59,949 bases of DNA, from assembly GCA_900552115.1 (NCBI GenBank), contig URYP01000001.1, positions 1 to 59,949 on the forward strand. Direction: 5' to 3'. This DNA is from an uncultured Oscillospiraceae bacterium (GTDB taxonomy: Bacteria > Bacillota > Clostridia > Oscillospirales > Acutalibacteraceae). The position numbers and the translations under genes were made by a program. Position 1 is the first letter of the stretch. The number at the start of each line of letters is the position of its first letter. Of the stretch, positions 8,765-45,742 are shown in pieces. Under the pieces are notes generated by a model that saw only the letters and a program-made list of their open reading frames with translations, made no database searches and was not told the origin of the DNA.

Positions 8765-8874
8765 ACCCGCATTGGGTGGGAGGAACATCTCAACCATTCC
8801 GATTTTACCACTCTACGCGGTTTGCTCCGGCAAGGCCCGGCATGCAGCCGCGTATCAACAGGGAGGATAAGCCA

Positions 8875-9564: not shown

Positions 9565-9583
9565 TTTTCATAAAACCGGCCCC

Positions 9584-9612
9584 TTGACAAAGCGTTTCGC
9601 TTTGTATATAAT
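9584..9612 (+). promoter_or_regulatory. Consensus sigmaA promoter for rplJ-rplL
   Basis: TTGACA (9584-9589), exactly 17 nt, TATAAT (9607-9612). Confidence 0.8.
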
Positions 9613-9819
9613 AGTAAACGCTGTTCTTCCACAGACAGCAGGTGTCCCCCGGGACCTAACGGCCAACGCCGCCTGCCGAGGCAGAGAGCTTTAACTGGAG
9701 TGACACGGATTCTTTGTATTCCGATGCTTTTTGTTAATGCGCCCTTCCTGTGGAGCGATCCGCCGGAAGGGCTTTTCTTATGTTGAAGACGGCAGATTCA
9801 GCATGGAGGTGAATTAGAT
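9613..9819 (+). promoter_or_regulatory. rplJ 5' leader (L10-leader-type autoregulatory RNA with terminator-like hairpin)
   Basis: About 200-nt untranslated leader between the promoter and rplJ. Stem GCCCTTCC (9741-9748) pairs with GGAAGGGC (9765-9772), followed by TTTTCTT. The position matches the L10(L12)4-sensing leader known in Firmicutes. Covariance-model match not tested. Confidence 0.6.
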
Positions 9820-12402: not shown

Positions 12403-17910
<5,508 letters not shown>

Positions 17911-27980: not shown

Positions 27981-28022
27981 AAAAGCCGCCCGTCAAAAGC
28001 GCGATCGGCGCTTGACGGACGG
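27981..28022 (-). terminator. Terminator of the desulfurase-sortase-thiI-cinA::spoIID operon
   Basis: Long hairpin CCGCCCGTCAAAAGCGC, loop GATCG, GCGCTTGACGGACGG (one mismatch), followed on the minus strand by CTTTTC. Begins 14 nt after the stop at 28036. Confidence 0.75.
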
Positions 28023-28035
28023 CCGTATATCGATG

Positions 28036-31000
28036 TCACCATTTGGGAGCCACCAGCTGTGCGGCGGACGAGCTGCTGATAGAATAATAATGGCGCAAAA
28101 TTTGCTGGTAATTCCACCCCGCCTCGTTGGCGTATCCGATCGCTCCCATCTGGCTGAGCCCCACCCCATGGCCATAGCCATAGGTCGTGATCGTCAGGCT
28201 CTGTTTTTTGCTGTCGTAGGCCGTCACCGCAAACGCGTGCGAACGCATACGGCTTCCAATCGCGGTGCGCAGCTGCGGCCCGGTCACATATTGCTTGCGG
28301 CCGTTTTTGTCCGTATAGTACCAGTTGGTCTTGGTAACATAGCGGGACGAACCATCCGTTTCCAGCGCATAAAGCGGCGGCTTGCCGTTTTTCGCGTCAT
28401 AGCCGACCGTACCGCTCCCCTGATTCTCCTTTGCCCAGTCCTGCAATTCTTTTTTGAGCTGATCCACCGTGATGGTAAAGGAGGAAGTCCAGCGGTCGGT
28501 GCCTGCGCTGTATTTGCCGATATACGCATCCGAATCATAGGGGCTGGTCACGCTCCGCAGATAGGGCAGGCTGCCCCAGAATACCTTCTGGCAGTTGGCT
28601 GTCACCCCGGCGCTGGAGGCATAATACATGGTGTTGCAGGCTAAGGATTTTAGCGACGACTGCGTCGTATCCAGCACCTTGACCCCCAGCACACTTCCTA
28701 CCGCGTCGTATATCTTGCGGTCGGAGGCCACCGACGAGGGATTCATGGATGGCATGGGAAACGCGTATGGTTTGTCATATTCGGAAACATACCAGATCAC
28801 ATAGGTGTACGAGGCGACCGCCTGGGCTTTCCAGGCCTCAGAGGAATACAGTCCGTACCGTTCAGCCCCCATTTCCCGTTTAACAAGCCGTGCCAGCGCG
28901 GTCTGCAGCTCCGTCTTGTTTTTGGGCTTTGTCACCTTTCCGGTAGAACTGTCCTTCACCTGAAACAGCTGCATAAACTGTGTTTCGGATATTTTTCCCG
29001 CCTGCAGGCCCGCCGCGGAACCGGCAGAGGACCCCGGTTTGGCGGCCGTCGTCGTCCGCCGTGTCGTGGTGGTGGTTTTGGCGGCCGTCCCTTTGGTTAC
29101 GGCGGAACCGCCTGCCTGACCGGTTGCTGTTGTTACAACAGCTATGGAATTCCGGGAGGTGGATTTCGTGGTAACCGGTGTTTCTTCCATCCAGCGCGCG
29201 GGAAGCAGCGCCTGCGTATTACGGACCACGCTTGCCGTGCTGTCGTCCGCCTCTTTATCATTCGTTTGTGTACCCAATGCCGCATCCTGTGTCACAGCCG
29301 TCACGACATCGGGGAGTTTCCGGGCCGCTACCACCAGCCGGGCCCCTTTAAAGCCGGCCTCCTTGGAAGCATCGGTGGATACCAGCAGAAGCCGGTCCTC
29401 CGGGGTCACGTCCACGTCGATGGTAAAAAGCGACCGTTTGCGAATCTCGGTGACAAACGTCTGGAATGCGTCTCCACCAAAACGGGACATGGTATAATCA
29501 AAATAGTCTTCGGAGGCAGGATTGCCATCCACCACCATAACGCCAAACACGTCCCAGTCAGCCCGCTCATACAGCGTATTCATATGGATCGTGCGATGTT
29601 CTTTGACAAAGGCGGCATCCATATAGCCGAGCAGGTCCGACAACATGCGGCCATCCCGCGGATTGCTGCCATAAACCACCAGCGAGCGGTTCTCCGACTG
29701 CGTGGTAAAAAACGCGGCCTCTTCATCAAAATAGAGCGCGCCTACGTCCGATTTGGTTCCATCCGAGGCATGAGTTTCATAGTAGCTGGAATCACCTGTC
29801 CTTTGCATCACCGGATAGGCGATTTGTGTATTATCGATGGACAGCCAACCGCGCACATCCTGGTTCTGGCTATACAGGTTATAGAAGTCGCTCAGCATTC
29901 CCTCCGGCGCTCCGGCGGGAGCGCCGATTGTCGCCGCGCTGTTCTTTTCGGAAGCAAACATGGAACTGAGTGTATCGACGATCCCACCGGAACCGGCCGG
30001 TGCGGATGACGGCTCAAAAAGGGTAAACAATACCCAGCACAGCACCGCGGCCAGAATCGCCACCGTACCCAGCAGCACCGCCGTACGGCGGCGATGATCG
30101 GGTTTTTCGCCTTGAGCCGGCGCCGAGGGGATTTCCGGCGCGGGGGACGGTTCTTCCTCGATGCGTTCCCCGCCGGCCATAACGGTCGGCAGCGCCTCCA
30201 GATACCGCCTGGTCAAATCCAGCGCATGGGATACCGCCATACGCCGCACGGTATCGCGGTCATCGGCACTATGCCCGGCGATAATTTTTTTAATCCATAC
30301 CCGCTTGCCGTCGGCCAGGGCAATATAAACGGTTCCCACCGGTTTGCCCTCGCTGGGCTCGGGCCCGGCAACGCCGGTAATGCCCACGCCCAGCGTCGCA
30401 TGGCTGATCTGGCGCACGCCTACAGCCATGGCGCGGGCCACTTCCGGACTCACCGCGCCGCAGTTGTCCAGCAGCTCCTGGTCGACGCCCAGCAAATGGT
30501 GTTTGATTTCTTTGGAGTAAGCGGCCACGCCGCATTCAAATACGTCGGACGCGCCCGGTACCTCTGTCAGGCGGCCGGACAGCAGTCCTGCCGTACATGA
30601 TTCCGCTGTGGCAATTTTCATCCCTTTGTCCCGCAGCAGACCGACGACCGTTTTTTGCAGGCTGCCGGCGTCCACACCATAAATGCAAATTCCCAGCCGG
30701 TTTTTCAAATCCTCCAGTATCGGTTCGCACATTCGGCGGGCCTGGTCCTCGCTGTCTGCCCTCGCGGTGACACGCAGCACCACTTCGCCCTCTTTAGCGT
30801 AAGGTGCGACGGTGGGATTGGCGCCACTAATCAAATCGGCGATCCGTTCGGCAATGGAGGATTCCGGCATGCCGAACACCCCAACCGTGTAGGAGTAAAT
30901 CCCGCCCTCTGAAAGCTTCGCCAGATACGGCGCCACATAATCGTTGAACATGGGGATCAGCTCACGCGGCGGACCGGGCAGCAGGATTACCCGCCGGCCG

Positions 31001-31425
31001 TCCTTTTCCATGGCGCAGCCGGGAGCGGTTCCGTGATCGTTGCAGAATACGGTGCACCCACGGGGCAGCCGGGCCTGCTTCTGATTGTTATCGGTCAGAT
31101 CGCGGCCGGTATTTTCAAAGTATTCCACAATCCGGCGCCAGCTTTCCTCATGCAGAACCAGCGGCAGGCCGAGAACTTCGCAAACGGTTTCCTTGGTCAG
31201 ATCGTCTTGTGTGGGACCCAGTCCGCCGGCAACAATCACGAGGTCGCTGCGTTCAAACGCCTGCCGAAACAGTAAACTCAGCCGTCCCGTATTGTCGCCC
31301 ACCGTTGACTGGTGTAGGACGGAAATCCCCTGCGCCGCCAACTCGCGGGACAAAAACTGACTGTTGGAATCCACAATATCCCCCAGCAGCAGTTCCGTAC
31401 CGACCGTTATAATTTCAGCCTGCAT
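28036..31425 (-). CDS. Fusion protein: CinA (MoCF-like plus PncC domains), TM helix, degenerate class-B-sortase-like domain, Thr-rich linker, SpoIID/LytB domain (1129 aa)
   Basis: aa 1-412: MQAEIITVGTELLLGDIVDSNS... and KIATAESCTAGLLSGRL (CinA). aa 448-470: TM helix. aa ~520-705 are colinear with the sortase domain of ORF 32669-34255 but read YGSN and STD in place of YGHN and STC. aa ~815-1115: AQAVASYTY..YYASSAG..GYGHGVGLSQMGAIGYA (SpoIID). Confidence 0.8.
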   Translation of the reverse strand: MQAEIITVGTELLLGDIVDSNSQFLSRELAAQGISVLHQSTVGDNTGRLSLLFRQAFERSDLVIVAGGLGPTQDDLTKETVCEVLGLPLVLHEESWRRIVEYFENTGRDLTDNNQKQARLPRGCTVFCNDHGTAPGCAMEKDGRRVILLPGPPRELIPMFNDYVAPYLAKLSEGGIYSYTVGVFGMPESSIAERIADLISGANPTVAPYAKEGEVVLRVTARADSEDQARRMCEPILEDLKNRLGICIYGVDAGSLQKTVVGLLRDKGMKIATAESCTAGLLSGRLTEVPGASDVFECGVAAYSKEIKHHLLGVDQELLDNCGAVSPEVARAMAVGVRQISHATLGVGITGVAGPEPSEGKPVGTVYIALADGKRVWIKKIIAGHSADDRDTVRRMAVSHALDLTRRYLEALPTVMAGGERIEEEPSPAPEIPSAPAQGEKPDHRRRTAVLLGTVAILAAVLCWVLFTLFEPSSAPAGSGGIVDTLSSMFASEKNSAATIGAPAGAPEGMLSDFYNLYSQNQDVRGWLSIDNTQIAYPVMQRTGDSSYYETHASDGTKSDVGALYFDEEAAFFTTQSENRSLVVYGSNPRDGRMLSDLLGYMDAAFVKEHRTIHMNTLYERADWDVFGVMVVDGNPASEDYFDYTMSRFGGDAFQTFVTEIRKRSLFTIDVDVTPEDRLLLVSTDASKEAGFKGARLVVAARKLPDVVTAVTQDAALGTQTNDKEADDSTASVVRNTQALLPARWMEETPVTTKSTSRNSIAVVTTATGQAGGSAVTKGTAAKTTTTTRRTTTAAKPGSSAGSAAGLQAGKISETQFMQLFQVKDSSTGKVTKPKNKTELQTALARLVKREMGAERYGLYSSEAWKAQAVASYTYVIWYVSEYDKPYAFPMPSMNPSSVASDRKIYDAVGSVLGVKVLDTTQSSLKSLACNTMYYASSAGVTANCQKVFWGSLPYLRSVTSPYDSDAYIGKYSAGTDRWTSSFTITVDQLKKELQDWAKENQGSGTVGYDAKNGKPPLYALETDGSSRYVTKTNWYYTDKNGRKQYVTGPQLRTAIGSRMRSHAFAVTAYDSKKQSLTITTYGYGHGVGLSQMGAIGYANEAGWNYQQILRHYYSISSSSAAQLVAPKW

Positions 31426-31457: not shown

Positions 31458-32636
31458 TCAGCCGATGGGCACCCGCCGGATGCCTTCCAGGGCCTCCGCC
31501 TCCAGCGCCTCCACATCCAGCGCCCGCTCCGCCTCTTCGACCTGAGCGAGCTTCGGCCGCGTGCGGGGATGTTTGGGCGTAAAGACCGTGCAGCAGTCCT
31601 CATACGGCTGTATGGACAATTCAAACGTATCAATTTTGCGGGAAATTGCCACGATTTCCTCTTTATCCATGCCAATCAGCGGCCGGAACACCGGCCGGTC
31701 ACACACGGCATCGGTGCAGGCCAGGGCCGGTATGGTCTGGCTGGCCACCTGGCCGACGCTTTCGCCGGTAATCAGCGCACCACAGTCTTCCCGCTCGGCA
31801 ATCGCCGCCGCAATCCGCATCATAAACCGGCGCATAATCAGGGTAAACAGTTCTTCCGGGCAATTCCGCTGGATCTCCTCCTGAATATGCGTAAACGGCA
31901 CAATGTGCATCGACATGCGGCCGGCATATCGCGCCACCTGCTCCAGCAGGGAGATCACCTTCTGCTCCGCGCGTTCGCTGGTATAGGGGGGAGAGGCAAA
32001 ATGCACCGGCACCAGCTGAACGCCCCGCTTGGCCAGCATATAGCCGGCCACCGGCGAGTCGATCCCCCCCGATATCAGCAGCGCGGCCCGGCCGCCGGTT
32101 CCCACCGGCATACCGCCGGCTCCCGGCTGCTGCGCCGCATGGATGTAAGCGCCGAAATCCCGAATTTCCACCATTACCTGCGCCTGTGGATGATGGACAT
32201 CCACCCGCAGGTGCGGGCAGCGTTCGAGAAGCGCCCCACCCACCTCGGCCGCGATCTGCGGCGATGTCAGCGGAAAGGTTTTATCGCTGCGGCGGGCATC
32301 CACCTTAAAGGTGGATACGCCGGCCAGCGCTTCCTGTAAATAATCCGCGGCGGCTTCCCGGATGGCGGCCATATCTTTTTCTACCACACGCGCCCGTGAA
32401 AACGCCGATATGCCAAATACGCGCGACACCCGGTCGGCGGCTTCATCCCAATCGATGAAGTCCTCCGCCGGTTCAACATAAATGGTCGACTGCGCTTTAC
32501 GGAGAGTAAACCGCCCCACAGGAGACAGCCTACGCCGCAAGTTTTTCATCAGGATCGCTTCAAATGTTCCCCGGTTCAGGCCCTTTAAAGCCAGTTCACC
32601 TGTTTTAATCAACAATATTTCCTGTACGTCCCGCAT
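31458..32636 (-). CDS. thiI: tRNA 4-thiouridine(8) synthase ThiI (no rhodanese domain)
   Basis: IKTGELALKGLNRGTFE (ferredoxin-like/THUMP N-terminus). PP-loop LISGGIDSPVAGYM. 392 aa. Confidence 0.93.
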   Translation of the reverse strand: MRDVQEILLIKTGELALKGLNRGTFEAILMKNLRRRLSPVGRFTLRKAQSTIYVEPAEDFIDWDEAADRVSRVFGISAFSRARVVEKDMAAIREAAADYLQEALAGVSTFKVDARRSDKTFPLTSPQIAAEVGGALLERCPHLRVDVHHPQAQVMVEIRDFGAYIHAAQQPGAGGMPVGTGGRAALLISGGIDSPVAGYMLAKRGVQLVPVHFASPPYTSERAEQKVISLLEQVARYAGRMSMHIVPFTHIQEEIQRNCPEELFTLIMRRFMMRIAAAIAEREDCGALITGESVGQVASQTIPALACTDAVCDRPVFRPLIGMDKEEIVAISRKIDTFELSIQPYEDCCTVFTPKHPRTRPKLAQVEEAERALDVEALEAEALEGIRRVPIG

Positions 32637-32668: not shown

Positions 32669-34255
32669 TCAGGCCTCCGGCCCATCGCTCGCTACGGCCC
32701 CGGTTGGTTCCGTGGTGGTCGTGGTTTCCGGCGGTTTCTGCGTTGTCGTTGCCTTTTTTGTAGTCGTCGTTTTGGGCGGGGCCTTGGTCGTGGTGGGTTT
32801 GTTGGTGTAAGAGCCGACCGTAACCTTGCCTGTTGTGGTACGCCCATCGCCCGTCATAACCACTTCATGGGCTGTAGTGGTTGTGCTTTCCGGCGTATAA
32901 AAATCGTCTTTGGTATTGATGGTGGTGGTGCCGCCCGCCTCATCGTCCGCCGTGGTTGTGGTGGTGGCCGTAGGAATGACATACTGGCCGTCGTAATAGG
33001 GATGGACCGACATCCCCTGGCTTTTATACCAGGCATACGGCATGATGACGTTCGGATTGTCCGTAACCTGCGTGGTATCCACCGCGGGATTTTCCCCTAC
33101 CCGCACCTTGCGGGCAATGACCGCCAGCCGGCCGTCTTCAAAGCCCACGCCGCTCTTGGTGGTACAGGTGGACAGCACCAGCAGCTCGTCATCCGCTTCC
33201 ACGCTGACACTGTCATAATTATACAAGGAACGCGCCCGGTATTCGTTGACATAGTTGAGGAAATCCAAATCGTCATTAAAGCTGACCCGCAGATAATCAA
33301 ACACCGGTCCGTCGGATTCCTTGGTGTTGGTTACGACCACGGCAAATACCTTGTACTGATCGGAGCCGAACATGGTATCCATCCGGATCGTAGGCGCCGC
33401 CTTGGCCCGCGCCACATTTTCCAGAAACAGGTTCAGATGCGCGAACATCTGCCCGCTGTTCATATTGTGGCCGTAAACAATGGACACCTTGTTTTCCGCT
33501 GATGTCAGCGTGTAATTGTTGCGCCAGTCAAAAAACAGCGCCCCGTTCTTATTATAATTCTTATTAAAGTCATGCTCCAGATAGTAAGAGTTGTCGCCGC
33601 TGTACATCACAGGATAGTCAATCTGTAAAAAGTCGTCCTGTGTCGCCGCTTCATAGGTCAGCCAGGCGCGGAAATCGTTGTTTTTGGCATACATCTGCTG
33701 CATGAATTTCCGGCGGTCTTCCTCGCTGCCATCCCGGACTTTATTGAACTCATTCTGCAAATCCCCGTTGGCACTGGCGTTCTGGGCGGGAATCCAGATG
33801 GTATCATAAACGATATAGACCGCCGAACTGATCAGGGTTAGAAACGCCAGCATAAACAGGCATTTGCGCAGCATTTCCACCGCCCCGTCGCCCCGCTGGG
33901 GAATCAGCCCGTGGAACAGGCGGGTATGCCAGCGTTCCTTTTTCCGCTTCGGCACGGCCGGGGAGGCGACGGCGCCTCCCGCTGTCAGCCCCATCGCGTC
34001 TCCCGCCGCTTTGGCCTGCGCGGCGGGACGAGGCGTCTGCTTCGCGGCCGAAGACGCCGCCGGAGCAGAGGATGCCTGAGCAGGAGAAGAGGAACTGGCC
34101 GCCTGTTTCCCGGCCAGTGTTTCCTTCAGTACCTCGTCCACCGACATAGAGGAAGCCGGCCGGGACGTATCCGCCGCTTTGACCTGACGGATGATCCGCT
34201 CCACTTCCTTGTCGCCGTCCGGGTAAATATATTGTTTATCCTTCGGATTGCTCAT
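32669..34255 (-). CDS. Elongated class-B-sortase-like membrane protein (528 aa)
   Basis: Cytoplasmic Ala/Ser-rich N-tail and a TM helix at aa 131-150. Sortase-B-type motifs IDYPVM, SYYLEHDF, IVYGHNM (His263), LVLSTCT (Cys364), GRLAVIARK (Arg). ~130-aa C-terminal Thr-rich extension. Confidence 0.8.
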   Translation of the reverse strand: MSNPKDKQYIYPDGDKEVERIIRQVKAADTSRPASSMSVDEVLKETLAGKQAASSSSPAQASSAPAASSAAKQTPRPAAQAKAAGDAMGLTAGGAVASPAVPKRKKERWHTRLFHGLIPQRGDGAVEMLRKCLFMLAFLTLISSAVYIVYDTIWIPAQNASANGDLQNEFNKVRDGSEEDRRKFMQQMYAKNNDFRAWLTYEAATQDDFLQIDYPVMYSGDNSYYLEHDFNKNYNKNGALFFDWRNNYTLTSAENKVSIVYGHNMNSGQMFAHLNLFLENVARAKAAPTIRMDTMFGSDQYKVFAVVVTNTKESDGPVFDYLRVSFNDDLDFLNYVNEYRARSLYNYDSVSVEADDELLVLSTCTTKSGVGFEDGRLAVIARKVRVGENPAVDTTQVTDNPNVIMPYAWYKSQGMSVHPYYDGQYVIPTATTTTTADDEAGGTTTINTKDDFYTPESTTTTAHEVVMTGDGRTTTGKVTVGSYTNKPTTTKAPPKTTTTKKATTTQKPPETTTTTEPTGAVASDGPEA

Positions 34256-34268
34256 GACGTGCCTCCTT

Positions 34269-35396
34269 TTATTTGCGCACCAAAACGTCCGCTGCCTGTT
34301 TCAGTGCTCCAACAAAACCGTCAACGTCCTCCTCGGTATTCTCATAACTGAAACTGATCCGCAGCGCGGAGTCAATCTCCCGGTCCGGCAGGCCCATAGC
34401 CGTCAGCACCGGGCTCTTTTTGCCCTTGGAACAGGCGGACCCGGAAGAAACATAAATCTCTCGCTCCGCCAGGAAGTGCAGCATGGTTTCGCTGCGGATA
34501 CCCGGTACCGACATATTTATAAGATAGGGCACGCCCCCGTCGGGAAGATGGAACACCATGTCCGGCCTGTCGGACAGGCTCCGGAGCAGGCGGTCACGCA
34601 GCTTTTCATACAGCTTGTGCTGCTCCGCCGGCGGCGGCAACGCCGTCACCGCCGCACCCATGGCGGCGATGGCGGGTACCGCTTGGGTCCCGCAGCGGAG
34701 CCCCCCCTCCTGTCCGCCGCCGAACGAGCGGGGCAAAATGCGTACCCCTTTGCGGATATAGAGGGCCCCCACTCCTTTAGGGGCATGGATTTTATGTCCG
34801 CTGACTGTGGCCAAATCCACCCCCATGCGGGTCAGGTTTAAGGACAGCTTGCCCGCCGCCTGCACCGCATCGCAGTGGATCAGGGCCTGCGGGCTTACCC
34901 GCCGAATTCCCGGTATCATCCTGTCCACCGCAAACCGTGCCCCGGTTTCGTTGTTCACCAGCATCACGCTGACCAGCGCCGTGTCCTCCCGGCAGGCCTC
35001 CAGCACCTGCTGCGGCGTAATAACGCCGTCGCGTCCGGGACGGACGCGGGTCACCTCCCAGCCCTGCCGCTCCAGCTCGTCGCAGGAAGCGAGAATGGAG
35101 GAATGCTCCACCGCGGTGGTTACGATATGCTGTCCCGCACGCCGCCGGGCGGCCGCCCCGCCCAGCAGGGCCAGATTATTGGCCTCCGTGCCGCCCGCGG
35201 TAAAAACCAGCGAACCGGGAGGAACCCCCAGCCAAGCGGCCACGATCTGACGGGCGGCGGAAAGTTCCTGTTCCGCCCGGAAGCCCAGCGTATGCAGCGA
35301 CGACGGATTGCCAAAACAGGCGGTCATCAGGTAAACGGCCTTTTCCGCCGCCGCCCGGCATACCGCTGTCGTCGCGCTGTTATCCAGATAAATCAT
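34269..35396 (-). CDS. Cysteine desulfurase (class V aminotransferase, NifS/NifZ/IscS-like)
   Basis: MIYLDNSATT. PLP-lysine motif SGHKIHAPKGVGALY. Active-site loop SSGSACS. Confidence 0.92.
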   Translation of the reverse strand: MIYLDNSATTAVCRAAAEKAVYLMTACFGNPSSLHTLGFRAEQELSAARQIVAAWLGVPPGSLVFTAGGTEANNLALLGGAAARRRAGQHIVTTAVEHSSILASCDELERQGWEVTRVRPGRDGVITPQQVLEACREDTALVSVMLVNNETGARFAVDRMIPGIRRVSPQALIHCDAVQAAGKLSLNLTRMGVDLATVSGHKIHAPKGVGALYIRKGVRILPRSFGGGQEGGLRCGTQAVPAIAAMGAAVTALPPPAEQHKLYEKLRDRLLRSLSDRPDMVFHLPDGGVPYLINMSVPGIRSETMLHFLAEREIYVSSGSACSKGKKSPVLTAMGLPDREIDSALRISFSYENTEEDVDGFVGALKQAADVLVRK

Positions 35397-35430
35397 GTGC
35401 GGAGCCTCCCGGAGAAAGTTAGGTCATCTT

Positions 35431-35459
35431 ATTATACAATAGAATGCGCCGGGTGACAA
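35431..35459 (-). promoter_or_regulatory. SigmaA-type promoter of the desulfurase operon
   Basis: On the minus strand: TTGTCA, 17 nt, TATAAT, about 35 nt upstream of ATG 35396. Confidence 0.65.
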
Positions 35460-35628
35460 CCGCTTTTTAGGGACTGGAAAGAAGTTTACAACATTGTCAA
35501 AACCTTGGAAATTGTTTTCAATATTGTCACTTTTTCGACAGAAAAAACTATGGCTTTTTGTCGGGCGACGTCGTATAATGGTAATAGGAAGTGAAGCCGT
35601 GACCGAAAGAAGAAAGGATGTGTGTTCT

Positions 35629-35748
35629 GTGCATAAGTGGATGGTGATTGTCGCAGCTATAGCGACTCTGGCAGCGGCCGTGTGGCATCTTTGGAGGGGC
35701 GAGCGGGACCTGCGCCGTCCCTTTGTGGAGGACTTTGAAACCGAATAG
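35629..35748 (+). CDS. Possible small membrane protein (35-39 aa)
   Basis: GTG 35629 lies 10 nt after AGAAAGGA (ATG 35641 is an alternative). Has a hydrophobic helix MVIVAAIATLAAAVWHLW. Followed by the strong hairpin 35767-35810. Confidence 0.3.
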   Translation: MHKWMVIVAAIATLAAAVWHLWRGERDLRRPFVEDFETE

Positions 35749-35766
35749 CGTGCCGTATCGGGCCGC

Positions 35767-35810
35767 ATAACAAAAGGCGGGATGCTTAAAAGCATCCCGC
35801 CTTTTGTTAT
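35767..35810. terminator. Bidirectional terminator, 20-bp perfect stem
   Basis: ATAACAAAAGGCGGGATGCT, loop TAAA, AGCATCCCGCCTTTTGTTAT. Confidence 0.85.
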
Positions 35811-35823
35811 GGCTCGTTCCGTT

Positions 35824-36033
35824 TTACAGGTCGTCCGCGTCCTGTACCGGCCGGCCGCCGTCGATATCCATGCCGGTATAGCTGCCCTGCACATCAGAGA
35901 GGATCGCTCCAGTCCCTTCTTCCTGTAAGGTGCGGGCACAGCTCTGCGACACGTCCATGACCGGACTTTCATATACATCCGCCTGTTTTTTCTTCTTTTT
36001 GGGCATTTCCCGAGGGGCCCTTTCGGCACTCAT
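35824..36033 (-). CDS. Small hypothetical protein (69 aa) translationally coupled to rubrerythrin
   Basis: The ATG is 1 nt after the rubrerythrin stop, with GGAGGA (inside the rbr 3' end) 9 nt upstream. GC3-rich codons. Lys-rich then acidic sequence. Ends before the terminator 35767-35810. Confidence 0.5.
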   Translation of the reverse strand: MSAERAPREMPKKKKKQADVYESPVMDVSQSCARTLQEEGTGAILSDVQGSYTGMDIDGGRPVQDADDL

Positions 36034-37621: not shown

Positions 37622-37736
37622 GCGGCATCGCCTTTGCATTTCTCAAAACGGCGTACCGTACCGAAAGCGCCCTCTTATAAATAACGGGTTTATGTCCTAT
37701 CTGGTCATAAAACCCGGAAAGGACAGGATGCTTTTT

Positions 37737-39125
37737 ATGTTTAAACGCATTCTCATCGCCAACCGTGGGGAGATCGCGGTGCGGATCATCCGCTGCTGCC
37801 GGGAAATGGGCATTGAAACCGTGGCGGTCTATTCCACAGCCGACCAGACGGCCCTGCATGTTCAGCTGGCCACCCAGGCCGTCTGCATCGGCCCGCCCAA
37901 AGCGGCGGACAGCTATCTCGATAAAACCCGTATCCTCTCAGCGGCTCTCGCTACCCACTGCGACGCCGTTCATCCCGGGTTTGGATTTCTTTCCGAAAAC
38001 AGCGATTTTGCCCGCCTATGCGAAGATAATGGCGTAGTATTCATCGGCCCCTCGGGCGACGTGATGGATAAAATGGGCAACAAGGAGGCCGCCCGCCGCC
38101 TCATGCGGGAACATAATGTGCCGGTGGTTCCCGGCTCCGAAGGCCGGGTGGATTCGGCACAGGAGGCGGCCCGCATCGCGCAGGAAATCGGCTATCCGGT
38201 GCTGATCAAAGCGGCGGCGGGAGGCGGTGGACGCGGTATGCGCAAAGCGTTCGGACCGGACGATATCGCCCCGGCTTTCCAAACCGCACAGGCGGAGGCC
38301 GTCGCCTGTTTTGGCAACGGCGACATGTACTTGGAAAAGCTGATTTTAAATCCCCGCCATATCGAGTTCCAGATTCTCGGCGATACTCACGGACAAATTC
38401 TGCACCTGGGAGAGCGCGACTGCTCTCTCCAGCGCCGCAACCAAAAAATGCTGGAGGAGGCGCCTTCCCGCGCGCTGGACGACGAGCTGCGCGCCCGCAT
38501 GGGAGATACCGCCGTGGCGGCAGCCCGGGCAGCCGGCTACGTCAGCGCCGGCACCATCGAGTTTGTCCTAGACGCCGACGGCCATTACTACTTTATTGAG
38601 ATGAACACTCGTATCCAGGTGGAGCATCCGGTAACCGAGCTGGTCACCGGCGTGGATTTGATCCGTGAACAGATCCGCATCGCGGCTGGCCTGCCGTTGT
38701 CCCTGTCGCAGGATGACATTCGACTGTCCGGCCACGCCGTTGAATGCCGAATCAATGCGGAAAACCCTGCGCAGGATTTCCGTCCCTGTCCCGGTAAAGT
38801 GGACTTCCTTCATCTGCCGGGCGGAAACGGCGTGCGGGTGGATACCGCTCTGTACAGCGGCTACGAGGTGCCGCCTTTTTACGACTCGATGGTCGCCAAA
38901 GTTCTCGTCCACGCCCCCACCCGGCTGGAAGCCATTCGCCGCATGCGGCGGGCACTGGAGGAGCTGGTGATCGATGGGATGCAGACCAACGCGGACTTTG
39001 CCCACCTAATCCTTTATCATCCCGACTTTATAAAAGGTCGGTACGACACCGGCTTTCTGGAACGGAACATGGACGACCTGCTGTCCTGGGAGCAGACCTG
39101 TACGTCCCAAACGGCAAAGGCATGA
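37737..39125 (+). CDS. accC: Acetyl-CoA carboxylase biotin carboxylase
   Basis: MFKRILIANRGEIAVRIIRCCREMGI plus ATP-grasp motifs. The start is taken at ATG 37737 (37728 is possible). The track start 37692 is an upstream extension. Confidence 0.93.
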   Translation: MFKRILIANRGEIAVRIIRCCREMGIETVAVYSTADQTALHVQLATQAVCIGPPKAADSYLDKTRILSAALATHCDAVHPGFGFLSENSDFARLCEDNGVVFIGPSGDVMDKMGNKEAARRLMREHNVPVVPGSEGRVDSAQEAARIAQEIGYPVLIKAAAGGGGRGMRKAFGPDDIAPAFQTAQAEAVACFGNGDMYLEKLILNPRHIEFQILGDTHGQILHLGERDCSLQRRNQKMLEEAPSRALDDELRARMGDTAVAAARAAGYVSAGTIEFVLDADGHYYFIEMNTRIQVEHPVTELVTGVDLIREQIRIAAGLPLSLSQDDIRLSGHAVECRINAENPAQDFRPCPGKVDFLHLPGGNGVRVDTALYSGYEVPPFYDSMVAKVLVHAPTRLEAIRRMRRALEELVIDGMQTNADFAHLILYHPDFIKGRYDTGFLERNMDDLLSWEQTCTSQTAKA

Positions 39126-39169
39126 CCTAATCCCGAAAACGATACTTCCGGAAAGGAAGGGATTCCTCT

Positions 39170-40047
<878 letters not shown>

Positions 40048-40051
<4 letters not shown>

Positions 40052-41001
40052 TACGTGATACCGACGACGCCCTCGACCGGATGGAAGCCGAACTCAGCGC
40101 TATAAGCGGCACATCCCCCCGCGAAGAAGTCCGCCGCCGCCAGATTAAGCGGCAGATGCGGGAGCTGTGGGAAGGGGCCTTGCCCCTGTCCCCCGCCGAC
40201 CGGGTTTATCTGGCCCGGCATCCCCGCCGGCCCGGCGTCGCGGCCTATATTGCCGCGCTGTTCGATTCCTTTGTGGAGCTGAAAGGGGATCGGCTGGGAA
40301 AAGAAGACGCTAGCATCCTGGGCGGCATCGCTTTTTATAAGGAGCAGCCAGTCACAGTGATCGGTCACCGTAAGGGAAACGGCCTGGATGAGCATCTGCG
40401 CTGCAATTTCGGCATGCCCGGGCCGGAGGGATACCGCAAGGCTCTGCGGCTGATGCGGCAGGCGGAGAAATTCGGCCGTCCGATCATCACCTTTATTGAT
40501 ACGCCCGGCGCCTATCCGGGGCTGGAAGCGGAGGCCCATGGGCAAAGCGAAGCCATCGCCCGCAATCTGGCCGCCATGAGCGCGCTCACCGTCCCGGTTA
40601 TCGCCGTGGTCACCGGCGAGGGCAGCAGCGGCGGCGCGTTGGCCATCGGCGTGGCCAATACGGTTTTAATGCTGGAAAATGCCGTTTACTCCATCCTCTC
40701 TCCTGAAGGGTTTGCCTCTATTCTGTGGAAGGATTCCTCCCGCAGCGAAGAGGCTTGCGGCCTGATGAAGCTGACGGCGCAGGATCTCAGCCGGTTCGGA
40801 ATCATCGACAGCGTCGTCCCGGAACCTCCCGGCGGCGCGCACCGGAATCCACGCGCTGTTTTTGACGCGCTGGACAACGTGCTTGCCCGCGAACTGAAAA
40901 GCCTGCGCCGACAAAGCGGCACGGCGTTGGCGGCGGGCCGTTATAAGAAATTCAGACAAATGGGCGGAGCCTTTGAACAGGCCGCCGGGGAGGACGCATG
41001 A
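40048..41001 (+). CDS. accA: Acetyl-CoA carboxylase carboxyltransferase alpha subunit
   Basis: FIDTPGAYPGLEAEAHGQSEAIARN motif. ATGA overlap with accD. Confidence 0.93.
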
Positions 41002-41936
41002 ACGGACTGCATATTTGCGCCACCGGGCGCTGTCTGCCGCGCATAGCGGTAACCAATGACGAACTGAGCCGGACTGTGGATACCAGCGATGAATGGATCG
41101 CCTCCCGCACCGGCATCCGCCAGCGGTATTTCTGTAAAGAGGAAACCAACGCCGGACTGGCCGCCGGGGCTGCCCGGCTGGCAATGGAACGGGCTGGGAT
41201 ATGTGCGGAGGATATCGGCGCCTGTGTGGTCGCCACCTTTACGCCGGACTTTGCCACCCCCTCGGTTGCCTGCCTGGTCCACCGGGCCCTGGGCCTGCCG
41301 CAGGAGATCCCCTCCTTTGATATTAACGCGGCCTGCTCCGGCTTTGTATACGGCCTTCAGGTCGTCCGCGGCCTGCTGCTGCAAAGCGAGCGGCGCTATG
41401 CGCTGCTGGTTGGCAGCGAAGTTACATCCCGCGTACTTGATTTTACCGACCGCTCCACCTGCGTGCTGTTCGGCGACGGGGCCGCCGCCGTGGTTTTGGA
41501 GCTGTCCGACACCCATTCCTTTTTCTGTTCCCTTGGCTCCCGGGGAAACGAGGCACCGCTCTCCTGCCCCGGCCCGGGGCAGGACGGTGCGGCGTTGCAT
41601 ATGAACGGGCAGGAGGTGTTCCGCTTTGGGGTGGACATCGTCCCCCGCTGTATGGATGCGGTGCTGCAAAAAGCCGGGCGGACGCTGGACGAGATCGATT
41701 ATGTGGTGTGCCACCAGGCGAACGCACGCATTATCAGCCACGTTGTGCGCCACATGCACGCCGACCCGGACAAATTCTATCTCAACATGCAGACCTATGC
41801 CAACACCTCTGCGGCCAGTATCCCGCTGGCGCTGGACGAAATGGCGGAAAAAGGACTGCTGAAACCCGGCGTATCCATCCTGTGCGTTGGATTCGGCGCT
41901 GGATTTACCTGGGGCGGCGCGCTGCTGGAATTCTGA
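40998..41936 (+). CDS. fabH: 3-oxoacyl-ACP synthase III
   Basis: Active-site Cys in INAACSGFVYGL, then HQAN and NTSAASIP motifs. Confidence 0.93.
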   Translation: MNGLHICATGRCLPRIAVTNDELSRTVDTSDEWIASRTGIRQRYFCKEETNAGLAAGAARLAMERAGICAEDIGACVVATFTPDFATPSVACLVHRALGLPQEIPSFDINAACSGFVYGLQVVRGLLLQSERRYALLVGSEVTSRVLDFTDRSTCVLFGDGAAAVVLELSDTHSFFCSLGSRGNEAPLSCPGPGQDGAALHMNGQEVFRFGVDIVPRCMDAVLQKAGRTLDEIDYVVCHQANARIISHVVRHMHADPDKFYLNMQTYANTSAASIPLALDEMAEKGLLKPGVSILCVGFGAGFTWGGALLEF

Positions 41937-41972
41937 TCGCCGACATCCCGATTTACGAAAGGAAGGCTGCGC

Positions 41973-42908
41973 ATGACAACCTTACAGGAATTGCTTCAAA
42001 CTGAGTTTCCCTTTATCCAGGGAGGCATGGCCAACATAGCCACCGGCCCCTTTGCCGCGGCGGTTTCCAACGCGGGCGGGCTGGGCCTGATCGGCGCCGG
42101 CGGCATGACCCTGGAGATGCTTCGGGATCATATTCATCAGTGCCGCGCCCTAACCAAAAAGCCCTTTGGTGTCAATATTATGCTGATGCATCCGCAGGCC
42201 GGTGAAATGGCCGAGCTGGTTGCGCGGGAGCGCATCCCGGTGATCACCACCGGGGCGGGCAATCCCGCCAAATACATCCCCCTGTGGAAAGAGGCCGGCT
42301 GCAAAATCCTGCCGGTTATACCCGGCGTGGCGCTGGCGAAACGCATGGTGGCGGCCGGGGCCGACGCCATTATTGCCGAAGGGACCGAAAGCGGCGGCCA
42401 CGTGGGGGAAATGACCACCATGGCGCTGGTACCGCAGGTAGTCGACGCGGTTGACGTGCCGGTTGTCGCGGCCGGCGGCATCGCGGACGGACGGCAGCTT
42501 CTGGCGGCACTGGCGCTGGGCGCGACGGGTGTACAGCTCGGAACCTGCCTGCTGGTGAGCGAGGAATGCCCGGTGCACGATAACTATAAACGGGCCGTGC
42601 TCAAGGCCGGGGACAACGATACCGTGGTGACCGGCCGCATCGCTGGTGTGCCGGTACGGGTGCTTAAAAACCGGATGGCGCGCGAATATGTAAAACAGGA
42701 AAAGGCCGGCATGGACAAAATGGAGCTGGAAAAATACACCCTTGGTTCCCTGCGGCGCGCCGTATTTGACGGCGACGTGCAGGACGGCTCCCTGATGGCC
42801 GGACAGGTCGCGGGACAGCTTCATGATATTAAGCCGCTCCGTCAAATTTTTGAAGAACTGGCCGCAGGCGCGGCGAATGCGCTCGCCTCACTGGAAAAGA
42901 GGCGCTGA
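41973..42908 (+). CDS. fabK: Enoyl-ACP reductase II (FMN-dependent, nitronate monooxygenase fold)
   Basis: FPFIQGGMANIATGPFAAAVSNAGGLGLIGAGG. 311 aa. Position in the fab cluster after fabH. Confidence 0.88.
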   Translation: MTTLQELLQTEFPFIQGGMANIATGPFAAAVSNAGGLGLIGAGGMTLEMLRDHIHQCRALTKKPFGVNIMLMHPQAGEMAELVARERIPVITTGAGNPAKYIPLWKEAGCKILPVIPGVALAKRMVAAGADAIIAEGTESGGHVGEMTTMALVPQVVDAVDVPVVAAGGIADGRQLLAALALGATGVQLGTCLLVSEECPVHDNYKRAVLKAGDNDTVVTGRIAGVPVRVLKNRMAREYVKQEKAGMDKMELEKYTLGSLRRAVFDGDVQDGSLMAGQVAGQLHDIKPLRQIFEELAAGAANALASLEKRR

Positions 42909-42909
42909 C

Positions 42910-43977
42910 ATGCCGCTGATCGGACAAAAGGAACTGGAACTGCCTCTCATCCAGGGCGGTATGGGGGTGGGCGTTTCGCTTGGGAATCTGGCCGGGCATG
43001 TGGCGGCGCAGGGCGGCATGGGCGTCATCAGCACGGTAAACGCCGGGTACGCCCGTCCGGACTTTGAACGTAATCCCTTGGCGGCCAACCTCACCGCTCT
43101 GCATGAGGAGATTGCACGGGCTAAAGATATCGCGGCAGGGCGGGGCTTAGTGGCGGTCAACGTGATGGTGGCCACCACCCACTATGCGGAAACCGTGCGC
43201 ACCGCCATCGAAGCGGGCGTGGACGCGATTATTTCCGGCGCGGGCCTGCCAACAGAGCTGCCCGCTCTGGCGGACGCCGCCCCTGTCGCCCTGGCGCCTA
43301 TTGTATCCAGCGGCAAGGCGGCGCGGACGATCTGCCGCTTGTGGGAGCGCCACAATGCGCGCCTGCCCGACTTTGTGGTCGTAGAGGGCCGGGAGGCGGG
43401 CGGCCACCTGGGCTTTTCCCGCGAGGATCTCGAATCCGGCGCCGCGCCCACACTGGAAACGCTGTTGGCGGATGTGCGGCAGGCGCTCGAACCGTTTGAA
43501 AAAGCGGCAGGGCGGCCTATTCCGGTTTTTACCGCCGGCGGGGTCTATACCGCGGCGGATATCGACCGCTTTTTATCCCTGGGGGCGGCGGGCGTGCAGA
43601 TGGCGACCCGCTTTATCGCCACCCACGAATGCGATGCCTCCCCCGCCTACAAACAAGCCTTTATCCGCGCGCGCCGAGAGGATGTGCGGCTGGTGAAAAG
43701 TCCGGTAGGCATGCCGGGACGGGCGCTGGCCAGCCCTCTTTTGCGGCGGCTGGACTCCGGTGCGTCCTATCCCCCGTTGCGCTGCAACGATTGTCTGCGG
43801 GTCTGCCCGCATAAAGAAACCCCTTATTGCATCAGCCGCGCGCTGATTGAAGCGGTAAAGGGCAACTGGGAAGATGGGCTGTTCTTCTGCGGCAGCCATG
43901 TCTGGCGGATGGATCGGGTCCAGTCGGTGCGCGAACTTGTGAAGGAATTGTTTCCCCAAAGGAGGATACCCGAATGA
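42910..43977 (+). CDS. Second nitronate-monooxygenase/FabK-like flavoprotein with C-terminal Cys cluster (355 aa)
   Basis: LPLIQGGMGVGVS NMO motif. CNDCLRVCPHKETPYC (CX2CX3CX7C) at nt 43783-43830. ATG 42910 lies 1 nt after the fabK stop. The track start 42823 is an extension overlapping fabK. Confidence 0.8.
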   Translation: MPLIGQKELELPLIQGGMGVGVSLGNLAGHVAAQGGMGVISTVNAGYARPDFERNPLAANLTALHEEIARAKDIAAGRGLVAVNVMVATTHYAETVRTAIEAGVDAIISGAGLPTELPALADAAPVALAPIVSSGKAARTICRLWERHNARLPDFVVVEGREAGGHLGFSREDLESGAAPTLETLLADVRQALEPFEKAAGRPIPVFTAGGVYTAADIDRFLSLGAAGVQMATRFIATHECDASPAYKQAFIRARREDVRLVKSPVGMPGRALASPLLRRLDSGASYPPLRCNDCLRVCPHKETPYCISRALIEAVKGNWEDGLFFCGSHVWRMDRVQSVRELVKELFPQRRIPE

Positions 43978-44909
43978 AAACAGCTTTTGTATTCGCCGGC
44001 CAGGGCAGCCAGCGCGTTGGCATGGGGCGGGATTTATATGACCGGTATCCGGTGTTCCGTCGTATTTTCGACGATGCGCCGGTGGATTTTGACCTGCCCC
44101 GCCTCTGTTTTGAGGGGCCGGAGGAGCAGCTGGCCCAGACCCGGTACACCCAGCCCTGTATGGTGGCGTTTGCCGCCGGCGTCACGGCCCTGCTGGCCGG
44201 GGAAGGATGGTATCCCTCCATGGCCGCCGGGTTGAGTTTAGGGGAATATTCCGCCCTGCACGCCGCCGGCGTATGGGACAGCCGCACCGTCATCGGCCTG
44301 GCCGCGTTCCGGGGACTGGCAATGGAGCAGGCGGTGGACGGCCGGCCATGCGGCATGACGGCCGTCATGGGACTGGACCGCGGCGCACTGGAACAGGTAT
44401 GTATAAAGGCCGGCGCGGCGGGCATAGTGGAAATCGCCAACGATAACTGCCCCGGCCAGCTCGTCATTGGCGGCGACCAAGCAGCCGTGGACCGGGCAGC
44501 CGCTCTGGCAGTGGATGCCGGTGCGCGGCGCTGTGTACCGCTCAAGGTCAGCGGCCCGTTCCACACCTCCCTGATGGCTCCCGCCGGACGGGCGCTTAGG
44601 GAAAAGTTTCAAACCATTGTTTTTAACGCGCCGCGCTTCCCCATCCTCTTTAACGCGACGGGGCGTCCCATGGCGGAGACGGAAACCATCCCCGCCCTGT
44701 TGGAACGGCAGGTGCAAAGCGGCGTGCGCTTCACCGATACCATTCGTTATCTGGAAGCGCAGGGCGTGGATACCATCCTCGAAATCGGCCCGGGCCGTAC
44801 GTTGAGCGGTTTTGTTAAAAAAACTGCGCCATCCATACAAACCATAGCGGTTGAAGACGCCGTCAGCCTTGGCGCGGCCATCGACCGGCTGAAAGGAGCG
44901 CAATTATGA
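43974..44909 (+). CDS. fabD: Malonyl-CoA:ACP transacylase
   Basis: FVFAGQGSQ and the GLSLGEYSAL active-site serine motif. Confidence 0.93.
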   Translation: MKTAFVFAGQGSQRVGMGRDLYDRYPVFRRIFDDAPVDFDLPRLCFEGPEEQLAQTRYTQPCMVAFAAGVTALLAGEGWYPSMAAGLSLGEYSALHAAGVWDSRTVIGLAAFRGLAMEQAVDGRPCGMTAVMGLDRGALEQVCIKAGAAGIVEIANDNCPGQLVIGGDQAAVDRAAALAVDAGARRCVPLKVSGPFHTSLMAPAGRALREKFQTIVFNAPRFPILFNATGRPMAETETIPALLERQVQSGVRFTDTIRYLEAQGVDTILEIGPGRTLSGFVKKTAPSIQTIAVEDAVSLGAAIDRLKGAQL

Positions 44910-45649
44910 GTATGCAGGGAAAAGTGGCGGTGGTCACCGGCGGCAGCCGGGGGATCGGACGGGCGGTCTGTTTGGAATTGGCCCGAAGGGGCGCCAATGT
45001 AGTGATTGGTTACGCCGGCGATGAACAGGCGGCACATGTGGCGGCGGACGCCTGCCGTGATGCCGGCGGCAAGGCGGTCATCGTGAAAGCCGACGTCGCC
45101 ACCGCGGAAGGCAGCGAAGCCCTTTTCGCGGAAGCCGTAGCCTCCTTTGGCCGGGTGGACATTCTGGTCAACAACGCCGGCATCACGCGGGATATGCTGA
45201 TTCTGAGGATGAGCGAACAGGATTTCGACCGCGTGCTGGATGTCAACCTCAAGGGCGCGTTCTTCTGTATGAAGCTGGCGGCGCGTCTGATGTCCAAACA
45301 GCGTTATGGCCGTATTATCAATATGAGCAGCGTGGTAGGACTGCGGGGAAACGCCGGACAGGTCAACTATGCGGCCAGCAAAGCGGGACTGATCGGCATG
45401 ACCAAATCCCTGGCCAAGGAAATTGCCTCCCGGGGTGTCACGGTGAACGCCATCGCCCCCGGCTTTATTGAGACGGATATGACCCGTACATTGCTGCCCA
45501 CCGTACAGGACAGTATCCTGACGTCCATTCCGCTTAAACGGTTCGGGCAGCCGGAAGAAGTCGCTCACGCCGCCGCGTTTCTTGCCTCGGAGGAGGCCGG
45601 GTATATCACCGGTCAGGTTCTCTGTATCGATGGCGGCATGGCTATGTAA
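44906..45649 (+). CDS. fabG: 3-oxoacyl-ACP reductase
   Basis: VTGGSRGIG, NNAG and YAASKAG motifs. Confidence 0.93.
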   Translation: MSMQGKVAVVTGGSRGIGRAVCLELARRGANVVIGYAGDEQAAHVAADACRDAGGKAVIVKADVATAEGSEALFAEAVASFGRVDILVNNAGITRDMLILRMSEQDFDRVLDVNLKGAFFCMKLAARLMSKQRYGRIINMSSVVGLRGNAGQVNYAASKAGLIGMTKSLAKEIASRGVTVNAIAPGFIETDMTRTLLPTVQDSILTSIPLKRFGQPEEVAHAAAFLASEEAGYITGQVLCIDGGMAM

Positions 45650-45742
45650 ACAAGGGCTTTTCTTCTATTAAAACGGTTTTAGTCCCCCGCTTTGCCTGTA
45701 TAAAACGGGGGTAATAGAACCCGGAAAGGACATGAATTTGTT

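Follow-up and report, generated by a model that had tools for sequence, protein, structure and literature searches.

An uncultured Oscillospiraceae bacterium encodes, in one open reading frame (ORF), a protein in which a complete CinA enzyme is joined to a transmembrane (TM) helix, a sortase-B-like domain whose catalytic histidine and cysteine have been replaced, and a SpoIID/LytB-type domain of the peptidoglycan-cleaving kind. The ORF lies on the reverse strand of contig URYP01000001.1 (GenBank assembly GCA_900552115.1), of which we analysed a stretch of 59,949 nucleotides, hereafter the window. We are highly confident of the predicted architecture and topology, the pseudoenzyme status of the sortase-like part and the conservation of the gene module to which the fusion belongs, taken jointly. 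As the best explanation of these features we propose, with moderate confidence, a bitopic protein that remodels the wall, its pseudo-sortase being paired with an active class B sortase (SrtB) and serving for binding or as an adaptor.

For decades CinA was an enigmatic protein; biochemically, it is an enzyme of nicotinamide adenine dinucleotide (NAD) recycling. Work from 1998 reportedly found pneumococcal CinA associated with the membrane and recruiting RecA. The initial annotation of this locus was aware of no described example of the architecture, and that statement holds for the literature but not for the databases: our search found no paper on a combination of CinA, sortase and SpoIID, and a survey of engulfment components does not mention the fusion, but a large Oscillospirales family of such proteins is already present in GenBank and RefSeq. 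Its members are named 'competence/damage-inducible protein A', 'SpoIID/LytB domain-containing protein' and, in one JGI record, 'SrtB family sortase'. Every part comes from a known superfamily, and the combination sits in public databases under these partial names. Annotation thus names proteins of 1100-1300 amino acids after one domain and, with the dead sortase invisible to Pfam, the architecture stays hidden.

A continuous reading frame joins CinA to a predicted extracytoplasmic region

The fusion gene and its main parts are as follows.

28036..31425, reverse strand: fusion ORF, 1129 amino acids plus stop codon, an ATG-to-stop frame without interruption
30190..31425, reverse strand: CinA (residues 1-412), with MoCF/COG1058, KH-like and PncC domains (Pfam, NCBIfam, Foldseek)
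30166..30210, reverse strand: junction motif RRYLEALPTVMAGGE (residues 406-420), at and just past the natural CinA C-terminus
30019..30099, reverse strand: single TM helix (residues 443-469), preceded by HRRR (AlphaFold 2 helix, hydropathy, family charge bias)
29011..29187, reverse strand: disordered Thr/Ala-rich stalk (residues 747-805), of low conservation

The frame had been described as uninterrupted, and we find neither a stop codon nor a frameshift at the CinA boundary. A Shine-Dalgarno-like GAGGTGA stands about 7 nt 5' of the ATG, and the junction motif RRYLEALPxVMAGG (residues 406-419) is nearly invariant in alignments of 121 and 79 homologues; the chain of Streptococcus mutans CinA (6mr3) ends at about this motif. 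The identical 1129-residue protein occurs on 23 independent contigs, and a homology search with full coverage returned over 120 clusters, formed at 90% identity, of proteins 1114-1236 residues long, down to about 36-50% identity. NCBI lists these under metagenome-derived genomes of Clostridia, Oscillospiraceae or Ruminococcaceae. Since the whole architecture is kept in homologues this distant, a chance association is excluded. That a stop codon or frameshift missed in sequencing or assembly joins two separate genes could be argued from one related locus in a metagenome-assembled genome (MAG; L079) that is split, and otherwise from prior caution alone; against the 23 contigs, the clusters of homologues and 80 GTDB loci with the same continuous frame, the probability of such an artefact is negligible, and the independent assemblies refute it.

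An internal start at the invariant Met416, where the window has GGAGG 14 nt 5' of the ATG, was considered and rejected. Codon usage predicts 23 occurrences of GGAGG across 69 loci, where 32 were counted, and GAA is common; the conservation of the region therefore reflects the protein rather than a ribosome-binding site.

The CinA part is assigned to the CinA family by all sequence tests, though not by size or solubility. Pfam recovers three domains (MoCF_biosynth PF00994, residues 4-169; CinA_KH PF18146, 180-250; CinA PF02464, 255-409), and the NCBIfam CinA equivalog PRK00549 (TIGR00200) covers residues 1-410 at 496.8 bits against a cutoff of 379, confirming the complete CinA at residues 1-412 that had been read from the letters. 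The sequence matches S. mutans CinA (6mr3) at E 1e-90, and Foldseek matches the structural model to Thermus thermophilus CinA (4cta, E 5.8e-38) and also to 6mr3. A CinA protein is expected to be soluble and of about 400-420 residues; this one has 1129 and the TM helix at 443-469. The catalytic residues of nicotinamide mononucleotide (NMN) deamidation in T. thermophilus CinA are Lys-301 and Thr-340 (PMC4246079). They align with K308 and T350 of the fusion, of which K308 is invariant and T350 at least 90% conserved in the family alignment, and the GGLGPTxDD and ESCTAG motifs are invariant or nearly so across homologues. With all catalytic residues in place, the part is apparently an active NMN deamidase and COG1058 pyrophosphatase.

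An AlphaFold 2 (AF2) model built from a 79-sequence alignment has a mean predicted local distance difference test (pLDDT) score of 85, with CinA folded over residues 1-420, a sortase fold over 505-716, disorder over 747-805 (pLDDT <50) and a SpoIID-like domain over 806-1129 (pLDDT ~97). Foldseek searches of the PDB with this single model recovered all three folds, the proposed sortase and SpoIID folds among them, and the Thr-rich linker noted between these two parts corresponds to the disordered stalk. The fusion has one hydrophobic segment (hydropathy peak at residue 449), so that the helix proposed after HRRR stands, with limits of 443-469 in the model in place of 448-470. Exactly one TM-like segment is present in 121/121 family members, in which the net charge of the 15 residues before it is +3.8 and of those after it 0, with a positive-inside bias in 117/121. 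By the positive-inside rule this bias places CinA in the cytoplasm and the sortase-like and SpoIID-like parts outside. The fusion is thus predicted to be a single-pass membrane protein, N-in/C-out, in agreement with the bitopic order of CinA, TM helix, dead SrtB-like domain and SpoIID/LytB domain first read from the ORF.

The Pfam searches bore out only the CinA part of this order: the CinA and MoCF domains matched, while Pfam Sortase PF04203 had no match to the fusion's sortase domain and Pfam SpoIID PF08486 scored 19.8, below its threshold of 23. Searches of NCBIfam and the PDB detect both. With the one Pfam model blind and the other sub-threshold, precomputed annotation lists CinA only.

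A sortase fold without its catalytic histidine and cysteine

The sortase-like domain and its active neighbour comprise the following features.

29278..29913, reverse strand: pseudo-sortase of class B fold (residues 505-716; NCBIfam, phmmer, Foldseek, blastp)
29665-29667, reverse strand: S587 in place of the catalytic His (alignment; codon position verified)
29371-29373, reverse strand: D685 in place of the catalytic Cys (alignment; codon position verified)
29338-29340, reverse strand: R696, the triad Arg, kept (alignment)
29191..29229, reverse strand: post-sortase segment VVRNTQALLPARW (residues 733-745), common to the active neighbour; strand in the AF2 model
32669..34255, reverse strand: stand-alone class B SrtB, 528 amino acids (NCBIfam), paralogue of the pseudo-sortase
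33031-33060, reverse strand: the same post-sortase motif in the active neighbour (residues 399-408; alignment)

A sortase-B-like region colinear with the neighbouring ORF had been placed at about residues 520-705. Both the fold and the colinearity are borne out, with folded limits of about 505-716: blastp aligns the domain with the neighbouring SrtB at 29% identity (E 5e-31), TIGR03064 matches residues 512-699 at E 5e-28 (98 bits, below the cutoff of 153.75), and phmmer retrieves Bacillus anthracis SrtB (2oqw, E 3.7e-22). Foldseek matches 2oqw at E 1.3e-16, and SrtB structures at E ~1e-16 with target-normalised TM-scores of 0.78-0.89 (5b23, 0.89). In the phmmer alignment the His of LYGH falls on S587 and the Cys of LSTC on D685, and the two codon coordinates originally given for these substitutions are exact. 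The neighbouring SrtB has its His-Cys-Arg triad intact, one TM helix, an N-terminal extension and a Thr-rich C-terminal extension.

The losses extend through the family. In 121 homologues the His column holds Asn (105), Ser (11), Ala (3) or Lys (2) and never His, and the Cys column Pro (69), Asp (20), Asn (9), Ser (8), Ala (6), Thr (6) and others, never Cys; the sortase Arg is kept in 106 of the 121, and the S/T-T of the LxTC motif is still present. The exchange of His for Ser or Asn and of Cys for Asp or Pro leaves no thioacyl intermediate possible. That the domain is still an enzyme acting through non-canonical residues, for example Ser587 or Asp685, might be supposed from the kept fold, Arg and active-site neighbour residues; the critical positions, however, vary freely (N/S/A/K and P/D/N/S/A/T), their commonest pair is Asn plus Pro, and no alternative nucleophile is conserved, so that we regard such an enzyme as very improbable.

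Selection on the domain was gauged against an 88%-identical orthologue (L088). The ratio of nonsynonymous to synonymous substitution rates (dN/dS) is 0.053 for CinA, 0.068 for the SpoIID-like domain, 0.19 for the stalk and 0.046 for the pseudo-sortase, the last being approximate. The pseudo-sortase is thus under purifying selection, as befits a maintained pseudoenzyme and not a decaying remnant. It has the sortase fold but lacks the defining catalytic triad, and ought not to be classed among the sortase enzymes. We found no account of a pseudo-sortase in the literature searched.

The blastp alignment with the neighbour runs on into the post-sortase motif, where NTQALLPARW of the fusion pairs with NPNVIMPYAW. 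The AF2 model has a short strand at residues 733-735 (pLDDT ~86) directly before N-x-x-[VA]-[LI]-[LM]-P-x-x-W (residues 736-745), in which the family alignment has N736 and P742 invariant or almost so. The motif could be a lid or a pseudo-substrate.

The gene block and its fusion and fission states

A tight block of four genes, in the order nifS-srtB-thiI-fusion and with gaps of 13, 32 and 32 nt, ends with the fusion; the active srtB lies two genes upstream of the fusion, beyond thiI. Besides the two sortase-bearing genes already listed, the block comprises the following.

34269..35396, reverse strand: class-V cysteine desulfurase (NifS/IscS-like), first of the four-gene block (Pfam/NCBIfam)
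31458..32636, reverse strand: thiI (tRNA 4-thiouridine synthase), directly upstream of the fusion (Pfam/NCBIfam)
35431..35459, reverse strand: sigma-70-type promoter-like site TTGTCA-17-TATAAT, 11/12, just upstream of nifS (consensus match only)
27987..28001, reverse strand: weak terminator-like hairpin just 3' of the fusion stop (consensus match only)

We scanned one genome per GTDB species with the junction and sortase regions, the junction motif being the specific pattern. This revealed the motif in at least 125 GTDB species, from which 80 loci were kept, all from MAGs (Acutalibacteraceae, Oscillospiraceae, Ruminococcaceae and 'Candidatus Avimonas') of human, chicken and ruminant guts. Among 84 non-redundant loci, 66 have the arrangement of nifS, srtB with His-Cys-Arg, thiI and a fusion with a dead sortase, and a further 12 carry the dead fusion on a contig that mostly ends before the upstream genes. 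In two (L005, from Provencibacterium, and L083) the fused sortase has His-Cys-Arg and a separate srtB is absent. Other loci are differently divided. In L007 a CinA-SrtB protein (active, 957 amino acids) is followed by a pseudo-sortase-SpoIID protein (852 amino acids); L087 has split genes for CinA (430), SrtB (589) and pseudo-sortase-SpoIID (971); in L086 the active sortase is fused and the dead one is a separate gene just upstream of the SpoIID-like gene. In L091 (3456-5983, forward strand) a PncC-only CinA without MoCF is joined to an active SrtB (531 amino acids) and followed by a second active SrtB (296 amino acids, with a lipoprotein-like signal), the SpoIID-like domain being a separate gene. 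The split forms L087, L086, L079 and L091 all keep the order cinA-srtB-(pseudo)srtB-spoIID-like.

Across the 84 loci there is one intact SrtB per locus, with L056 (none) and L091 (two) as exceptions. Fusion of a sortase that has His-Cys-Arg is confined to loci without an active stand-alone srtB (L005, L083) and to loci with a second, dead sortase at the SpoIID-like part (L007, L086). Once the alignment was corrected, the His-Cys-Arg triad was intact in 70 of the 72 stand-alone copies; stand-alone 'Thr-nucleophile' sortases (His-Thr-Arg or His-Ser-Arg) were rejected as an hmmalign artefact that put the Cys in an insert column (LSTcT).

We also searched 1.84 billion cluster representatives with residues 440-1129 and classified the best 150 matches, together with the fusion and its SrtB neighbour, using our own domain hidden Markov models (HMMs). 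These 152 sequences include 64 of CinA-sortase-SpoIID type, 25 of sortase-SpoIID without a recognisable full CinA and 25 of CinA-sortase; 46 sortase domains have an intact triad, many of them in full fusions of 1120-1390 amino acids. Eleven proteins of about 590-680 amino acids (P0147, P0159, P0182, P0202, P0204, P0209, P0214, P0220, P0223, P0225 and P0227) start in the KH region of CinA (HMM position ~178-183) and end shortly past the dead sortase; they may represent a shorter architecture or truncated gene calls.

In a neighbour-joining (NJ) tree of the sortase domains (100 bootstraps), the dead domains form one clade in 73/100 replicates and the stand-alone active ones another in 78/100. 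Taken together, gene order and domain content show that the fusion is one state of an Oscillospirales module of nifS, thiI, cinA, srtB, (pseudo)srtB and a spoIID-like gene, and that the dead fused sortase is specific to one clade, in which it is genomically paired with an active SrtB, while distant relatives keep an active fused sortase.

The same data bear on whether the fusion is a neutral accident, in which cinA was joined by stop loss to a downstream TM-sortase-SpoIID gene, the parts act independently, the tether is meaningless and the dead sortase is a relic or spacer. The CinA part does stop precisely where a CinA protein naturally ends, ahead of the linker; there are split versions (L079, L086, L087 and L091), and the nifS-thiI-cinA synteny resembles a housekeeping set. 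The fusion has nevertheless been kept in at least 125 species, down to about 36-50% identity and with a nearly invariant junction motif; the pseudo-sortase, with a dN/dS of ~0.05, has numerous invariant positions and is modelled confidently as a fold; and the several fusion and fission states (CinA-Srt, CinA-Srt-SpoIID, PncC-only-Srt) always follow the same order. We therefore consider a neutral accident unlikely, while giving it more weight than any of the other alternatives discussed here.

A SpoIID-like domain and the question of sporulation

28039..29010, reverse strand: SpoIID/LytB-type domain (residues 806-1129), with the GYGHGVGLSQMGA block present (NCBIfam, phmmer, Foldseek)
28873-28875, reverse strand: catalytic Glu, E851 (aligned with Clostridioides difficile E101)

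The C-terminal domain had been set at about residues 815-1115; its fold and catalytic Glu are borne out, within limits of 806-1129. It matches C. difficile SpoIID (5i1t) by phmmer at E 7.8e-14 and by Foldseek at E 2e-13 (target-normalised TM-score 0.72). The catalytic residue of C. difficile SpoIID is E101 (PMC6221140), and the equivalent of E851 is invariant in 121/121 homologues. Family models place the domain at some distance from SpoIID proper: TIGR02669 matches residues 837-1115 at E 3.7e-23 with 82.8 bits, borderline and just below the cutoff of 83.3, and the SpoIID equivalog TIGR02870 fails at 75.8 against 234.75. Its closest unfused relatives, at 39-50% identity, combine this domain with a signal peptide, Dockerin_1 (and SH3_3 in one of them) and a linker rich in Thr, in the order signal peptide, dockerin, linker, domain; among them is a 'dockerin type I domain-containing protein [Acutalibacteraceae bacterium]'. 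Scores separate this subfamily (at least 208 bits) from the ordinary PF08486-positive SpoIID/LytB proteins of Oscillospiraceae (at most 99 bits). Display of the subfamily on the cell surface thus seems to take two forms, through a dockerin or on a stalk of TM helix and (pseudo)sortase.

Elsewhere in the window (12427-17910, forward strand) lies a gene for a glycoside hydrolase family 2 (GH2) beta-galactosidase-type protein of 1827 amino acids, which contains an insert resembling laminin G and carries a type-I dockerin at its C-terminus. The organism therefore possesses a surface system of the cohesin/dockerin type. A circularly permuted SpoIID-like domain, with the GYGHGVGLSQ block before the catalytic-Glu block, was seen in L091 (6001-7152, forward strand) and in the proteins P0190 and P0197. 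P0412, considered as the same organism's canonical SpoIID, was rejected: it is an unfused, circularly permuted SpoIID-like gene of the module, from another organism.

The engulfment function of SpoIID, invoked when the domain was first recognised, probably does not apply, given the equivalog score and the dockerin-bearing relatives. A reading in which the fusion is the lineage's membrane-anchored SpoIID in forespore engulfment, with the (pseudo)sortase aiding septum targeting, could draw on the SpoIID fold with its equivalent of E101 and on the germination gene ypeB, which adjoins the operon in the related Provencibacterium locus L005. Sporulation-specific sortases are, moreover, known in B. 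anthracis. Against this reading stand the score far under the SpoIID equivalog cutoff, the sharp gap to the ordinary SpoIID/LytB proteins of Oscillospiraceae, the dockerins of the nearest relatives, and an operon shared with the housekeeping genes nifS and thiI and preceded by a sigma-70-like promoter-like site. Cultured Acutalibacter species, whether or not they carry the fusion, are also described as non-spore-forming (PMC11316587). No sporulation genes were found among the annotated ORFs of the 60-kb window, which is uninformative either way. We judge a role in engulfment to be distinctly unlikely; the equivalog failure, the dockerin-bearing relatives, the dockerin-bearing GH2 of the window, the housekeeping operon and the promoter-like site together favour a vegetative role of the SpoIID-like domain at the wall or cell surface.

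Other features of the locus and the window

Directly upstream of nifS (35424-36029, reverse strand) is an ORF of 201 amino acids without a Pfam or NCBIfam match, the 3' end of which contains the promoter-like site. Rfam and tRNA scans found nothing near the operon. In about 10 related loci, though not in the window, a divergent gene just upstream of nifS encodes a small secreted protein (93-165 amino acids) with a signal peptide, a 'GYWTT..D..G..V.IFTYTEPV' block, an acidic or Ala-Pro stretch and a C-terminal TM segment ending in 'ALYKAV'. Its layout is like that of a sortase substrate, but there is no consistent sorting motif.

L009 2132-2533, L011 1728-2189, L022 990-1352, L027 1747-2193, L036 2083-2502 and five more loci, reverse strand: small secreted family

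Further away, the window contains genes for a TgpA-type transglutaminase-like membrane protein (790 amino acids), an ORF of 410 amino acids without a family match and a MoxR/chelatase-like AAA ATPase (1682-6218, reverse strand); rplA, the gene for ribosomal protein L1, with an L10 leader RNA behind it (RF00557, 48.5 bits, 9611-9787), together spanning 8776-9787 on the forward strand; and a fatty-acid synthesis cluster of accC, accD, accA, fabH, fabD, fabG and fabF (37692-46981, forward strand), within which two NMO/FabK-like genes lie in tandem (41973-42908 and 42823-43977).

A model for the fusion protein

Under the preferred explanation, that of a bitopic wall-remodelling protein, the ectodomain would be a vegetative peptidoglycan-remodelling unit of the cell surface, and the stalk would allow the lytic-transglycosylase-like domain to extend into the wall. 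The pseudo-sortase would serve as a non-catalytic binding or adaptor module for a sorting-signal-like peptide, for lipid II or for the active SrtB, and could in this way couple glycan cleavage to sortase-mediated anchoring in the same place. CinA would catalyse its reactions in the cytoplasm and be merely held at the same membrane site. The adaptor and coupling mechanism itself, which we infer, is a tentative proposal and somewhat less probable than the wall-remodelling explanation as a whole.

Several observations weigh against this explanation. Neither the window nor the 91 loci searched for a C-terminal sorting-signal pattern yielded a consistent sortase substrate. L056 (Ruminococcaceae bacterium UBA6353) is the only locus in which His and Cys are lost in both sortase copies. 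In the NJ tree a sister relation of the dead and active domains is recovered in only 21/100 replicates, too few to place the duplication. The dS of the sortase segment, ~2.0, is near saturation, which is why its dN/dS is approximate. Finally, given the kept thiI/nifS synteny, the linkage to CinA could be historical rather than functional.

A more ambitious proposal is that of a trans-envelope coupling device: CinA, tethered to the membrane, would have a functional connection with the remodelling of the wall, and outside the cell the dead sortase would regulate the active SrtB as its obligate partner. The nucleotide-binding or conformational state of CinA, an asymmetric dimer that rotates in catalysis, might control the outside unit through the TM helix; alternatively, the COG1058 pyrophosphatase might have as its substrate a nucleotide- or pyrophosphate-linked precursor of the wall close to the membrane. 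We consider such a device improbable by either route, slightly more so than a role in engulfment. If true, it would at last give CinA a cell-envelope function and provide the first described pseudo-sortase.

That fusion and gene neighbourhood associate CinA with a sortase and with a domain that cleaves peptidoglycan, throughout a family-level clade of gut Clostridia, is a 'Rosetta stone' hint, directly testable in culturable carriers such as Anaerotruncus colihominis, and the locus offers a clean natural case of enzyme/pseudoenzyme subfunctionalisation among sortases. If the parts merely work side by side, the protein would be a gene-fusion curiosity of poorly studied gut bacteria.

Comparison with known systems

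The CinA part has the same three domains as the known CinA proteins of T. thermophilus (4CT8/4CTA) and S. mutans (6MR3), NMN deamidases/ADP-ribose pyrophosphatases with which it has 36-40% identity and shares the catalytic Lys and Thr, GGLGPTxDD and ESCT(A/G)G. Known CinA is soluble and of about 410 amino acids, whereas the fusion continues beyond the junction motif with a TM helix and then some 660 residues predicted to be extracytoplasmic. A 2013 survey of PncC architectures mentions occasional fusions to other domains and then sets them aside (PMC3855486).

With class B sortases (B. anthracis 2OQW/1RZ2, C. difficile 4UX7/5GYJ, Staphylococcus aureus 1NG5/4LFD) the pseudo-sortase has in common the fold, an N-terminal membrane anchor and the active-site Arg. 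Unlike them, it is without His and Cys, scores below the family cutoff and is flanked on both sides by fused domains. The SpoIID-like domain shares with SpoIID/LytB, the engulfment lytic transglycosylase (C. difficile 5I1T, B. anthracis 4RWR), the fold, the invariant Glu and the GHGVG(L/M)SQ block. Identity to C. difficile SpoIID is about 25%, however, the Zn-site Cys and His of that protein are absent from the aligned segment of the fusion, and the domain lies below equivalog level, in a separate subfamily with dockerin-bearing secreted proteins.

The closest parallels to the whole protein are the fusions of Anaerotruncus colihominis (WP_278668045.1, 1304 amino acids, named 'SpoIID/LytB domain-containing protein') and Provencibacterium (MCI8442061.1, 1252 amino acids), which have the domain order, the single TM helix and the nifS-thiI neighbourhood in common with it. 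They differ in their junction sequence and longer linkers, and in a sortase that keeps His-Cys-Arg and is detected by Pfam, with no srtB between nifS and thiI.

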